Positions 30,652 through 43,474 of a stretch of DNA of 64,000 nucleotides are shown here, in pieces. Location: IMG/VR virus record IMGVR_UViG_3300045988_183453. The stretch is one strand, 5' to 3'. Numbering within the stretch: the stretch's first letter is position 1; each line of letters opens with the position of its first letter. The stretch is from a virus. The notes beneath the pieces are model-generated. The model made no database searches, was not told where the DNA came from, and was given only the letters and a program-made list of their open reading frames with translations. The position numbers were made by a program, and so were the translations under genes.

Positions 30652-30786
30652 TGTACAAGAGAAACGGCAAGAGACATTTGTAGTGATTATAGTTGGTCGC
30701 CACGAATCGATGCCGTGTCTGCTTGCGCATAATTACCTCTTTTCGAAGCCCACAGGTCATTCTCTCACCTGTGGGTTTTGTTTATT
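30652..30786 (+). ncRNA. Candidate short RNA (~135 nt) between P1a and a strong intrinsic terminator
   Basis: Terminator hairpin cccacaggtcattctctcacctgtggg (30748-30773) plus TTTTGTTTATT. No credible ORF with an RBS. Confidence 0.4.
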
Positions 30787-30794
30787 GCGGAATC

Positions 30795-30812
30795 GTGCGA
30801 ATTGCAGACAAT
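30795..30812 (+). promoter_or_regulatory. Motif promoter P1b (GTGCGAATTGCAGACAAT)
   Basis: TTGCGG-N16-GACAAT immediately after the terminator. Confidence 0.55.
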
Positions 30813-30883
30813 TAAAGACAGAGCGATTGTGAGATGGGGCGATACCGATGCAGTAGGGATGAGAATCTTAGCAGCTAAAAGAG

Positions 30884-30958
30884 TCAACAACCCCGCCTAA
30901 ACCGGTTCACCGGTTATAGACGGGGCTTGCGGGGTAACCCGTAAGCTCGGTTGATTAG
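30884..30958 (+). ncRNA. Conserved structured RNA-like module, copy A
   Basis: caacaaccccgcctaaaccggttcaccggttatagacggggcttgcggggtaacccgtaagctcggttgattagcc. Nested hairpin (ccccgcc[aaccggt-ttca-accggtt]ggcgggg) plus hairpin gcttgcgggg-taa-cccgtaagc. About 92% identical to 43118-43195. Confidence 0.45.
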
Positions 30959-31138
30959 CCTAAGTCTGCTGCTCCGGCGGCAGGAAACTACGTTGTGTAC
31001 TAATAATATAGGCACCTTATCCATGCTCCACAAGTGGTGAGCTCTGCAGGCGTTTCGTTAAACATCTCCGAGGGGAGGAGAAGTGCGAGCGTCATGTCGA
31101 AAGGCTAAAACAGTGCATAACATTGGCGAAGTGGACCA

Positions 31139-31178
31139 CAGGACGCAAGTCCTGACTTATAGTTTTATTACTATTTTA
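31139..31178 (+). terminator. Possible leader terminator before the flotillin gene
   Basis: caggac-GCAA-gtcctg hairpin followed by a U-rich tract (acttatagttttattactatttta). Weak. Confidence 0.35.
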
Positions 31179-31198
31179 CGAATGGAGAAACAAAAATT

Positions 31199-32842
31199 AT
31201 GGTATATGTGATTGGAATTGTAGCAGCCCTGATTATTCTCTTTGGATTTCTCTGCTACAAGAAAGCTCCGCCCACGGAGGCTATCGTTGTAACTGGCTTT
31301 GGCCTGTCTAAGCCTAAAGTGGTTTGCGGAAAGGGTACATTTGTTCTGCCCGTTCTTCAACGGGCTGACCGACTGAATATGCGCCTTTTGAAAATCGATG
31401 TCAAGACTCCTGAAACAGGTGTTAAGACGAAGAACGGCGTAAGTCTCTGGATTGACTCTGTTGTCACGATTCAAGTCTACAGCGAAAACTCTACCGTTCT
31501 GGATGAAGAAGTGAAGGCATCCGGTCTGAAAGACGCCAAGGCGTACATCATGTCCCGACAACAGGCAGCCATCTCGAACTTTCTGGGCATGAACGAGCAG
31601 GGCATCAATGAGAAAGTTAATGACGTTCTGCAGGGCAATTTGCGTGAGATTGTCTCTGACATGACCGTTGACCAAATTCTGACGAACCGCAAGCAGATGG
31701 CTGTGAGCGTTATCGAGAATGCTCGCCCCGACCTTGCTAAGATGGGACTTGAGGTCGTGACTTTTAATGTCCAGGACATCAGGGATGCAGTGGATGTTCA
31801 AGGCCACAATCACGGCGTTATCGAAGCTATCGGCATTGAACAGGAAGAGCTTGTGAAAAAACAGGCTGAAATTGCCCGTGCTCAGGCTGCCCGTGATGTA
31901 GCCTGCGCGAAGGCCGATGCTGAGATGGCTGCAAATGCCAAGGAAGTTGAAGCGCAGACTGCGATTGCAAAACGCAACAATGAATTGCAGCTCGCCAAGG
32001 CAAAGCTGAAAGCTGAAGCTGATAAAGCTGCGGCTGACGCAGATGCTGCCGGTCAGATTCAGATGAATCTCCGCGCCAAAGAAATCAAAGAAGCGGAAGC
32101 GGATGCTGAAATCGCCAAGCAGAAGAAAATGGTAGACCTTGCCGCACAGGAAGCCGAGGTCCAGCAACGCAAACTGGATGCGGAAGTCCGCAAACAGGCA
32201 GATGCTGACCTGTACCGCCGCCAGAAAGAGGCAGAAGCCAAGAAATATGAGGCGGAACGTGCAGCTGAGGCACAGAAGTTCTCCAAGCAGCAGGAAGCAG
32301 AAGGCATTGAGCTTGTCGGTAAGGCAGAAGCTGAAGCGATTCGTCAGAAAGGCTTGGCTGAAGCGGAAGCCATGAAACAGAAAGCAGAGGCATATAAGCA
32401 GTATAACGATGCGGCTGTGGCTGAAATGCTCATCAAGGTTCTTCCTGACATTGCCAAGAGCGTGGCTCAGCCTTTGTCCAGCATTGATAAGGTTTCTATC
32501 ATTGGCGGTGATGCCTCCGGCGTATCCGGCGTTTCCGGGAACGTTCCTATCCTGATGGCTCAAACCATGCAGACGGTGAAAGAAGCGACCGGCATTGACA
32601 TGGGCGAAATTGTCCGTGCCAACAGCATCCAGGCAAAGACAGACCGCAACATCAACATTATGACTCAATGTGAACAGCCTGAGAATAACAAAGAGAAAGG
32701 AGGTGCCAAGGCAATGGAACGCGTAGAAGGCGGCTATCTGATTCATGAGAAGAATCTCAACGGTGAGGAAGTCACTCATTTTCGACCGGATGTGACCGAA
32801 GAAGAGAAGGCTATCATGAAAGACAAAAAGGCCAAAGATTAA
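31199..32842 (+). CDS. Flotillin-like SPFH/band-7 protein (FloT/YuaG-like)
   Basis: N-terminal TM, SPFH domain, long Ala/Glu-rich coiled coil (AEAEAIRQKGLAEAEAMKQKAEAYKQY); 547 aa. Confidence 0.85.
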   Translation: MVYVIGIVAALIILFGFLCYKKAPPTEAIVVTGFGLSKPKVVCGKGTFVLPVLQRADRLNMRLLKIDVKTPETGVKTKNGVSLWIDSVVTIQVYSENSTVLDEEVKASGLKDAKAYIMSRQQAAISNFLGMNEQGINEKVNDVLQGNLREIVSDMTVDQILTNRKQMAVSVIENARPDLAKMGLEVVTFNVQDIRDAVDVQGHNHGVIEAIGIEQEELVKKQAEIARAQAARDVACAKADAEMAANAKEVEAQTAIAKRNNELQLAKAKLKAEADKAAADADAAGQIQMNLRAKEIKEAEADAEIAKQKKMVDLAAQEAEVQQRKLDAEVRKQADADLYRRQKEAEAKKYEAERAAEAQKFSKQQEAEGIELVGKAEAEAIRQKGLAEAEAMKQKAEAYKQYNDAAVAEMLIKVLPDIAKSVAQPLSSIDKVSIIGGDASGVSGVSGNVPILMAQTMQTVKEATGIDMGEIVRANSIQAKTDRNINIMTQCEQPENNKEKGGAKAMERVEGGYLIHEKNLNGEEVTHFRPDVTEEEKAIMKDKKAKD

Positions 32843-38493: not shown

Positions 38494-38620
38494 AGAATTG
38501 ACACCTCCCACGATTTCAATCGTGGGATTCCCGGGTGGCGGTGGCAAGGCTTATCACCATGCCGCATACAAGGCAGCGAGTTATGCGGTTCCCCACCATC
38601 CGCTACGGGTGTAGCGCACA

Positions 38621-38866
38621 ATGAGCATCCAGCCTAAAAGGGTAAAGCATAAAGCAGTCAACAAGGTAAACCTTAATCCGGGTGATTTAGTCTCTCTCAA
38701 CGGAGAAGTTCTCGTTGTGCATGGTACTCATACCAATAAAAAGGGTGCTGTAAATGTAGAATTCAAAACACCCGGAAAAAGCGGTCAAAAATCTGCAAGC
38801 CTTAAAAAACTTAAAATTGTAAAAGCAGCAGATTCCATGCATTCTGCATGGGAAAAAATATCTTAA
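38621..38866 (+). CDS. Hypothetical small basic protein
   Basis: 81 aa ORF. Confidence 0.45.
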   Translation: MSIQPKRVKHKAVNKVNLNPGDLVSLNGEVLVVHGTHTNKKGAVNVEFKTPGKSGQKSASLKKLKIVKAADSMHSAWEKIS

Positions 38867-38996
38867 TCATTTAAAGAAAGGAGTAGCAGGGTATTTGTGC
38901 TAACTGAGTACACTTCAAATTGCCTCTTGGTTAGCGCATTCCTCACCGCCTAAGTCGCAAGCGACTATAGACGGTGTACCCTGCGCACATAATTTG

Positions 38997-39635
38997 ATGA
39001 AATGGATTGTCAAGCAAACCAAATCGAAAGGATATGAGTTCACCTTCGATATCGTGAAAGGCAAGGCCGTTATCGGGCAGGCACACTATATCCCGAAAAT
39101 GCTGCGGCAGGGTTATGGTATTCGACTGAATGATTCCAAGTTCCTGCTGCAATACATGCCAGCTGCTGACGCAAGGGCGTACATGCGCGGCATCAACACG
39201 AAAGATATTCTGAGACACCCTTTTGCTATCTGTGAGAACAACCGCACGGTAGGCGAGATTTCCGTCATCCATACAAAAACCGGATTCCTCCAAGGATACA
39301 ATTCTATCGCCATGCAGCTGTATGGCGAGGAATACCAGAGCTACAAAATCGGCTTTGGAAAAGAAGGAGTATGCTGCCCTGTATTCCTTTGCGGACAGCA
39401 AATCGCCCAAATCAATAAGAGCGCGGTGGTCAAGGATAATCTGGATGAATACCTGATTTACGCAGTGAATGAAAAGGCACTGATGCCGTCCGTCATGTTC
39501 GCCATTTATATCGATGGAATATACTACGCAAACCGAGGCGTGTATGTGGATGACGCAACGACTATCAACTGCGAATACAGCTTGAACGAGGAAGTTCTGT
39601 CCCACTACGACCCGAATTTTGTCAAGGGACTATGA
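38997..39635 (+). CDS. Hypothetical protein
   Basis: ATG 38997 (the track uses TTG 38994). A conserved ~55-nt module lies upstream, shared with 43264-43333. Confidence 0.5.
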   Translation: MKWIVKQTKSKGYEFTFDIVKGKAVIGQAHYIPKMLRQGYGIRLNDSKFLLQYMPAADARAYMRGINTKDILRHPFAICENNRTVGEISVIHTKTGFLQGYNSIAMQLYGEEYQSYKIGFGKEGVCCPVFLCGQQIAQINKSAVVKDNLDEYLIYAVNEKALMPSVMFAIYIDGIYYANRGVYVDDATTINCEYSLNEEVLSHYDPNFVKGL

Positions 39636-42748: not shown

Positions 42749-42823
42749 GAAATTTTTTCCCGTGTGAGCAGTGACGCTCATGCGGGAATTTTTTGTAATT
42801 TTCTATTGTCAATCTGTGCGAAT

Positions 42824-42843
42824 TGCGTACAATGAAAAATATA
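42824..42843 (+). promoter_or_regulatory. Motif promoter P5 (CTGTGCGAATTGCGTACAAT)
   Basis: TTGTCA-N16-TACAAT. Confidence 0.6.
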
Positions 42844-42866
42844 AACCAAAAATATATCTTATCGTT

Positions 42867-42903
42867 GTCCCGCATGAGTTGTTTGTGCGGGACTTTTTGT
42901 TTG
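42867..42903 (+). terminator. Leader (promoter-proximal) intrinsic terminator / attenuator
   Basis: gtcccgcatgagttgtttgtgcgggac followed by TTTTTGTTT, between P5 and the start codon at 42921. Confidence 0.55.
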
Positions 42904-42920: not shown

Positions 42921-43127
42921 ATGTACGGTTTATCAGAAGAAAGCTTAACGATTGTTGGTGTTATTTTGATTGTGGTTGGTGTCGCTATGATTGGTTGGGG
43001 ATTTGAATGGAATCAGGACATTACCAATGATAAACGGGTCGGAACCGTTGTCAGAGACATTGGCGTTATGGTTTTGGCAACCGGCATCATATTTGTGATG
43101 CAGCGGGCAGTCAACAACCCCGCCTAA
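42921..43127 (+). CDS. Small membrane protein (68 aa)
   Basis: MYGLSEESLTIVGVILIVVGVAMIGWGFEW… after the RBS GAAAGGAAA. Its last 6 codons overlap the conserved structured module. Confidence 0.4.
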   Translation: MYGLSEESLTIVGVILIVVGVAMIGWGFEWNQDITNDKRVGTVVRDIGVMVLATGIIFVMQRAVNNPA

Positions 43128-43195
43128 ACCAGTTCGCCGGTTATAGGCGGGGCTTGCGGGGCAACCCGTAAGCCCGGTTGATTAGCCTTGGTGAA
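43118..43195 (+). ncRNA. Conserved structured RNA-like module, copy B
   Basis: caacaaccccgcctaaaccagttcgccggttataggcggggcttgcggggcaacccgtaagcccggttgattagcc. Same double-hairpin architecture as 30884-30958, with compensatory-looking loop differences. Confidence 0.45.
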
Positions 43196-43474
43196 CGGCA
43201 ACTTCGGTTGCTGCGAACTCCGTTATGCATTTGAGTAAGCAGGAAATGCTGTATCTTAGTCTTTTCTAAGAAGCGCATTCCTCCCCACCAAAGCCTTACG
43301 GCTATAGATGGGGTGTCCTGCTCCATTATCATGAAACTTACAAGAGTGAGCAGGCAGCTCAGAATGCCCGAAAGCAGATTACCCGGCGCGGTGAGACGGC
43401 AGTGTATGCCACAGTAGAGGAAGCCGAAGCGTGGGTCGAACAACAGAAGGCGGCAAGAACCAGGAGGTAATCAT

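Follow-up and report, generated by a model that had tools for sequence, protein, structure and literature searches.

HEARO RNAs are the ωRNAs of IscB nucleases (OMEGA systems). According to Meers et al. (bioRxiv 10.1101/2023.03.14.532601) the scaffold of the IscB ωRNA is at the same time the RE of the transposon, and the guide lies outside the element boundary; transcription has to enter from the upstream host DNA (10.1101/2023.03.14.532601). The target-adjacent motif (TAM) determined by experiment in the same study for GstIscB of ISGst5 is 5'-TTCAT-3' and adjoins the LE (10.1101/2023.03.14.532601). Orphan ωRNAs, their use in trans and PATEs were already discussed there as well (10.1101/2023.03.14.532601).

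In this study we analysed a stretch of 64,000 nt of viral DNA (IMG/VR record IMGVR_UViG_3300045988_183453), which is called the window throughout. An earlier note, made from the letters alone, had described two copies of a structured, RNA-like element of 75 nt, here named copy A and copy B. We identify both repeats as the starting segment of an IscB ωRNA and as relics of IscB elements, with a probability of roughly 0.9. This estimate refers to their identity only and not to any present-day activity; the repeats are of a known kind and no new RNA is described. The features discussed below, including a further relic named C, are collected in the table. Loci fetched from IMG/VR carry L numbers.

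Results

Host replicon and promoter-like motif

Among the proteins encoded in the window are a type IV coupling protein, a VirB4/TraG-like ATPase, a UmuC-type polymerase, NADAR and a UvrD-like helicase, besides many unknown ones. The coupling protein is ~30% identical to VirD4 of a Clostridium plasmid (CD1115 family), and the host replicon is Clostridia-type, conjugative-like or phage-plasmid-like. A 39.9-kb IMG/VR contig holds an array of 14 tRNA genes upstream of its IscB element (L006 834-3971), so at least some of the related contigs are phage-like rather than plasmid-like in appearance.

No RRXRR or HNH domain was detected among the large ORFs of the 64-kb window, in which tblastn found a C-terminal fragment of iscB only. 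Likewise, no tnpA was found in the 64 kb. An approximate IS608 TnpA query gave no tblastn match in the window and did match L034 (60% identity, E 5.5e-55) and also L027. Since the window lacks both genes, any activity of A or B depends on genes elsewhere in the cell.

The motif GTGCGAATTGCRKACAAT occurs in 13 copies in the window, all on the + strand, against 0.26 expected. The copies are mostly intergenic and stand ahead of + strand ORFs, and the motif is probably a replicon-specific promoter or operator. A consensus scan detected no sigma-70 promoter upstream of copy A, and the motif copy at 30795-30812 is presumed to be the source of transcription into the ωRNA of A, which would be made as part of the flotillin leader.

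Directly after the motif copy at 42816 and before the ORF of a small membrane protein we also observed a strong terminator-like hairpin (42829-42898, gtcccgcatgag..gtgcgggacttttt). It gave a weak CyaR-like match to Rfam (26 bits, below threshold).

Coordinates of the features in the window, grouped by relic (all on the + strand)
Feature	Position	Strand	Remarks
Promoter/operator-like motif GTGCGAATTGCAGACAAT upstream of copy A	30795..30812	+	one of 13 copies
All copies of the promoter/operator-like motif	24281, 30628, 30795, 32973, 35887, 38475, 39679, 42816, 46830, 47353, 47459, 59304, 63376	+	
Guide-equivalent flank of copy A, CTTAGCAGCTAAAAGA, just outside the boundary	30867..30882	+	present in empty and occupied sites; guide position per Meers et al.
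Copy A, 5' module	30883..30961	+	P1 (GTCAAC/GTTGAT), nested hairpin, GNRA hairpin, start of the pseudoknot strand AGCCT
Copy A, complete IscB ωRNA scaffold with terminal GCAA hairpin (31139-31154)	30883..31154	+	HEARO match 30883-31141
Remainder of the iscB leader up to the deletion junction	31155..31187	+	homology break against full elements and empty sites
Flotillin/SPFH gene, outside the element	31199..32842	+	Pfam Band_7 and Flot domains
Relic C, GTCAACAA joined to the last ~70 iscB codons, then far-end nested hairpin and terminus	38657..38996	+	
ATGAA beside relic C	38997..39001	+	also start codon of the downstream gene
Guide-equivalent flank of copy B, TGTGATGCAGCGGGCA	43094..43109	+	forms the end of the small membrane-protein ORF
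Copy B, ωRNA-side end, element nt 1-125 (module 43110-43188, B-type hairpin, start of the next stem)	43110..43234	+	96-97% identity to full B-type elements
Copy B, far end, last 96 nt, terminus ...ccattatc	43235..43330	+	exact far-end motif at 43314-43333
ATGAA target-adjacent motif beside copy B	43331..43335	+	reverse complement of the GstIscB TAM TTCAT

Identity of the repeats

The two-copy repeat is real and non-random, as the earlier note had claimed. The shared block spans 80 nt with 5 mismatches (75/80 identical) between A (30882-30961) and B (43109-43188), and a 21-mer of the repeat has just two occurrences in the window and none in 100 shuffles. The start of copy B had been placed at 43118; it lies at 43110, the previous coordinates of this copy being about 8 nt late. 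Nor do the copies diverge completely after the block, since B goes on with a hairpin that stands in the place of that of A but has other stem bases and is followed by the conserved AACTNCGTTRTG. The difference in sequence past the block arises from the presence of two variants of the same ωRNA.

A scan of the whole window against Rfam, the check that the earlier note had proposed, settled the identity at once. The single match above threshold was RF02033, HEARO, the ωRNA of IscB (30883-31141, +), with 96.4 bits and an E value of 1.7e-18 over model positions 1-211 of 211, where the curated gathering score is 83 bits. This score is on a par with those of IscB-linked copies (95.9 bits in L006, 96.6 bits in L039). 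Within the model the shared block covers positions 1 to about 70, and the module of copy A makes up the first third of a HEARO/IscB ωRNA scaffold that is complete. Copy A is an orphan HEARO member, with its scaffold intact and iscB absent from the window. Of the IscB-linked leaders L206 is the nearest to this scaffold (90.7% identity), and compensatory changes separate the two in the long 3' stem and the terminal GCAA hairpin. Copy B scored 15.3 bits only, below threshold, and is a mere fragment of a HEARO member.

What had been proposed about the nature of the element stands as far as a structured, RNA-like and presumably protein-binding element is concerned. It is neither a free-standing RNA of 75 nt nor an origin: the block is the 5' module of an ωRNA of ~260-370 nt and, seen as DNA, one end of an IS200/IS605 element. 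That no tRNA cloverleaf could be threaded through it was confirmed, as ARAGORN and the Rfam tRNA model both gave no tRNA genes in the window, and ARAGORN no tmRNA either. A tRNA-like identity was dropped because neither program detects a cloverleaf in the element. Other Rfam families at copies A and B (P37, asX6, isrA and a CyaR-like terminator) were weak matches at chance level only.

Fold of the 5' module

Both copies fold much more stably than shuffled sequences, with z = -4.55 for copy A and z = -4.26 for copy B. In an alignment of 31 distinct module versions, 94.5% of the cells of the four helices were paired, against 22-48% with the partners slid. The nested hairpin and the second hairpin seen earlier were borne out across the relatives; the outer stem that encloses them, GTCAAC/GTTGAT, had been missed. 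Double-sided changes were found at 2 pairs only, from U-A to C-G in P1 and from G-C to A-U in the inner hairpin, and 11 of the 27 pairs have G.U variants or are G.U pairs in the consensus. As a G.U pair would be a C.A mismatch on the opposite strand, this pattern of variation fits selection on the + strand RNA. With a mean column identity of 94% covariation is thin, and the pattern is supportive of the stems being a selected + strand RNA structure, not strong proof of it.

Two details of the fold described earlier need correction. The arm 'ggcgggg' exists in B; in copy A, as in the family consensus, it reads 'gacgggg', with an internal C.A mismatch as the result. Furthermore, the substitutions between the copies had been taken to leave pairing untouched, which fails for the G>A change of B at module position 22. 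It creates an uncompensated A.C (pair 22-29) that no other of the 31 versions has. A GNAA (GNRA-type) tetraloop forms the second loop, with the T/C/A variation at its N position, and the private changes of copy A in the 84-nt module alignment are all at unpaired positions.

Relatives among IMG/VR contigs

An exact 25-mer of the module matched 71 loci among the IMG/VR contigs and no GTDB representative genome; a blastn search with window 30700-31200 gave no match among PLSDB plasmids. In all fetched sequence we counted 152 copies of the module with 52 distinct left flanks (20 nt). The flanks differ right up to GTCAAC, with no conserved motif and no conserved positions in the last 6 nt. Thirty-three of the 52 sites are linked to IscB, 10 have no IscB and 9 are truncated at the end of the locus, i.e. 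33 of the 43 scorable sites carry IscB. The downstream ORFs encode proteins of 456-468 aa with RRXRR (E 1.9e-45) and HNH domains and start at +309 nt (A-type) or +369 nt (B-type). Matches to iscB in IMG/VR numbered at least 135, often several per contig.

Beyond the shared 80 nt there are two types of body, the A-type, which Rfam recognises, and a longer B-type (e.g. L001 3995-4308 on the - strand). The B-type reaches 51 bits (E 1e-9) against HEARO and stays below the threshold of 83 bits because of its expansion segments. The leaders of the B-type are ~368 nt long, were seen at 21 distinct IscB-linked sites (about 25 unique sequences) and precede IscB proteins close to those behind A-type leaders. 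The HEARO model as it stands would miss B-type ωRNAs in routine annotation.

The earlier note had named, as a result that would refute it, that the element proves to be a repeat already known from a characterised recombinase. This is what was found, given the variable flanks at 52 sites, a conserved far end beside ATGAA (TTCAT on the other strand), empty sites in relatives and an IscB downstream of most copies.

Ends of the element and its target

The far end of the element is conserved through ...ccatWatY and is followed by ATGAA, with 13 distinct right flanks. Empty sites hold a single ATGAA, or TTGAA/CTGAA at the site of A, which shows that the motif is part of the target and that no second copy of it is made. 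Read on the other strand ATGAA is TTCAT, the TAM published for GstIscB. The nested hairpin at the far end has the same design as the one on the ωRNA side, and the nested hairpin of the earlier note is best read as an IS200/IS605 subterminal hairpin that doubles as ωRNA stem-loops. Copy B has both ends of this kind, copy A the ωRNA-side end only and relic C the far end only.

At no fewer than five independent sites (>=5; window 38997 and 43331, L015, L033, L040, L042 and others) the downstream gene starts within the TAM: ATG of ATGAA is its start codon and the letter(s) after it open its second codon, in ORFs of 88-213 aa. The elements at these sites consequently sit between the ribosome-binding site and the start codon of the gene.

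A mini IscB element in L046 (3106-4870) and L060 (compare L042) has taken up a TnpB element of 1,414 nt, which follows TTTAA. The RE terminus of the TnpB element in L046, ...cccccgcgtttaggcgggggtagttgac, is the reverse complement of the start of the ωRNA (GTCAAC..CCCCGCCTAAAC), which means that IscB and TnpB elements share one RE. The shared end suggests that one TnpA may serve both types of element. A swap of nucleases within the ends of an IscB element was ruled out for L046 and L060, as the TnpB element there is a separate one that follows TTTAA in the mini-element.

Copy A in the leader of the flotillin operon

The region of about 30883-31182 is absent from about ten syntenic contigs, which represent empty sites, and is occupied in four or five syntenic loci. 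The empty allele of the A site reads ...cttagcagctaaaaaaCTGAATGTGGAGAAAT...ATG(flotillin), and that of L077 ...aaaagaTTGAATG. Similarity between copies of the element begins at 30883. Four contigs share the insertion of A as in the window, and L084 has A with a different left flank; the arrangement with a solo A is common to the window, L073, L078, L079 and L084.

At the other side, homology to full elements stops at 31187 and homology to empty sites restarts at 31183, which places the deletion junction within GGAG of the iscB ribosome-binding site. Lost with the deletion are iscB, far end and TAM, together with two more bases of the target (compare TTGAATG of the empty site). Without far end and TAM, A cannot transpose. 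The flotillin gene now occupies the position of iscB, its start codon being at +317 compared with +309 for iscB in full elements.

Most empty alleles differ from the guide of A at the second base from the TAM, and their first TAM position is C. Due to these differences the guide of A may have few cleavable targets. One contig (182459) contains a solo copy of A (L079) and an intact IscB (L161) together.

We rejected an origin of A and C as the ends of one composite transposon of 8 kb carrying the flotillin, VWA and PLD genes, because relatives with an empty site have flotillin next to the left flank of A. A rearrangement was observed in L084 (2227-2682), where the DNA abutting the ωRNA boundary (30883) corresponds to inverted window 21260-20805; the window then reads ATGGA, a near-TAM. 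This arrangement suggests that the inversion in L084 may have come from recombination between copies of the element.

Copy B, a mini-element

Copy B measures 221 nt, or 226 nt with its TAM, and is without about two thirds of the scaffold and without all of iscB. Its hairpins are CCCCGCC..GGCGGGG (43118-43152) and CCCCACC..GATGGGG (43283-43313), and the last ~101 nt including the TAM (43235-43335) are 96% identical to L061 nt 1752-1852. The note had correctly placed the start of B within the last codons of a small ORF, to which the element contributes V-N-N-P-A-stop. Similar mini-elements are present in L042 and L012.

In most relatives the small ORF ends ...cagcgggcaATGAACTAA and is followed by a terminator and a gene for a 686-aa ResIII/DEAD helicase, ending ...cattggctATGAAACTTAC. 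The helicase gene is missing from the window and the mini-element stands exactly in its place (43109/43331 compared with L095-L122, locus positions 243-2356). The flanks of B are the left side of a first ATGAA site and the right side of a second one, and these sites are 2.1 kb apart in the relatives. For this reason the exact empty-site pattern for B had no match in IMG/VR. The arrangement is best explained by recombination between two copies of the element, from which B would have arisen.

Relic C and a neighbouring repeat

The iscB part of relic C was recognised by tblastn as IscB residues 392-465 with 72% identity (38648-38863). By blastn the relic is 79% identical to the tail of L006 and 97.7% to that of L014. 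A full element is present at this position in L014, L037 and L049, and relatives have either a full element or none at the junctions of B and C. Relic C may have begun as an internal deletion, for which the support is the 8 nt of GTCAACAA only. The iscB fragment is part of an ORF of 81 aa (38621-38866) that has its own ATG, encodes a C-terminal part of IscB and gave no match to Pfam.

Between the promoter-like motif and relic C there is in addition a hairpin-rich segment of 160 nt (38498-38656). The segment belongs to another family of repeats (L207-L252), of which it is a truncated terminus; the family has 46 IMG/VR loci, and the flanks of these vary right up to TT|GACACCTCC. Complete members of this family encode on the opposite strand a protein of 578 aa with a weak OrfB_IS605 (TnpB-like) signal (E 0.009), and a search of Rfam gave no match to the family.

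Discussion

We read the repeats as the ωRNA-side termini, in TnpA terms the transposon RE, of two degenerate ISGst5-like elements of the IscB-type IS200/IS605 group. In an intact element transcription would enter from the host DNA and the ~16 nt outside the boundary would become the guide. The following ~260-370 nt would fold into the ωRNA scaffold and be followed by iscB, and the far end would abut ATGAA (TTCAT on the other strand), a motif that TnpA and IscB may read alike. The matching nested hairpin at the far end agrees with the subterminal hairpins that elements of this IS family should have. In the case of copy A the scaffold has stayed whole while iscB, far end and TAM were deleted, leaving it in the leader of the flotillin operon. 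Copy B is an internal-deletion mini-element, presumably too truncated for a guide scaffold; as it has both ends, it could be moved as a PATE by TnpA in trans. Apart from this, A and B may double as portable homology, as judged from the breakpoints of rearrangements that fall exactly on element boundaries (the loss of the helicase at B and the inversion in L084).

Only copy A could still serve as a guide, and only with IscB in trans. Supplied with the IscB of a sibling element, A might load it and direct cleavage of insertion-free alleles, i.e. CTTAGCAGCTAAAAGA followed by TTGAA or ATGAA; we hold this to be tentative and give it less than an even chance. Its counterpart, to which we assign an even chance, agrees on the identity of the repeats and takes A and B for inert, decaying relics that no protein uses and that provide homology for recombination only, A persisting just because it is harmless in a leader. 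The window without iscB or tnpA, the lack of far end and TAM in A, the unique uncompensated stem mismatch in B and the absence of A from most syntenic contigs are consistent with such relics, and the 10 IscB-less sites among the 43 scorable ones indicate that decay is common. Inertness is less easily reconciled with a scaffold of A that scores like those of IscB-linked copies and with the sequence changes it has accumulated, the private ones in the module being all unpaired and those in the body relative to L206 including compensatory ones. Moreover, IscB genes of sibling elements are abundant on related replicons, one of which also has a solo A. A step further would be that the solo ωRNA of A was kept as useful, its transcript from the plasmid promoter acting with a co-resident IscB to cleave competing plasmids with the uninterrupted allele (CTTAGCAGCTAAAAGA followed by TTGAA). 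We regard this as unlikely; if true, A would be a nuclease-less guide in a plasmid-competition or gene-drive module, and the seed and TAM differences of the empty alleles would be escape variants.

Two further explanations do without IscB. Copy A might have been co-opted as a cis-acting 5' leader for translation or stability of the flotillin-VWA operon, as the scaffold has a promoter-like motif before it and the start codon of flotillin behind it, the deletion joined the ribosome-binding site of iscB to that of flotillin, and the window shares this arrangement with L073, L078, L079 and L084. The same arrangement would however be left by a simple deletion, the operon is insertion-free in most relatives, and no covariation or conservation specific to the solo copies was detectable, which together make a leader function quite improbable. 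The block of 75-80 nt as an independent small ncRNA, protein-binding site or origin-like structure we find barely credible. It has a stable fold and two occurrences, each downstream of the same promoter-like motif; against this, 33 of the 43 scorable sites run on into a full ωRNA and an IscB gene, relatives with an empty site lack the block, its boundaries are those of the transposon, and the HEARO model of Rfam spans it.

The value of the identification of the repeats as IscB ωRNA segments lies mainly in annotation, in that a structured repeat is explained by relics of ωRNAs and transposon ends and not by a new class of RNA. It also reveals a family of gut Clostridia-like extrachromosomal elements that is heavily colonised by IscB elements. 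Orphan, intact ωRNAs like that of A lend themselves to tests of guides acting in trans, an idea that has already been published.

Among the known systems HEARO (RF02033) is the one that copy A matches in its layout of P1, hairpins and pseudoknot and in the variable 5' flank at the position of the guide. Its relatives stand directly upstream of IscB genes with RRXRR and HNH domains, whereas copy A precedes the flotillin gene instead, and copy B keeps just the first 125 nt. ISGst5 of Geobacillus stearothermophilus resembles the present family in that the scaffold is the RE with the guide outside, and the TAM TTCAT beside the LE reads ATGAA on the iscB-sense strand. In both, the ends are common to IscB and TnpB elements, most copies are without tnpA, and there are PATE derivatives. 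The host background differs, being a gut Clostridia-like extrachromosomal element here, and the comparison with ISGst5 is one of layout. PATEs, the ORF-less IS200/IS605 derivatives, resemble copy B, which has a subterminal hairpin at either end, a conserved flank with the TAM and no ORF; the flanks of B come from two different ATGAA sites, and B is a candidate PATE only. Nothing here departs from the picture drawn by HEARO/ωRNA, ISGst5-type elements and PATEs.
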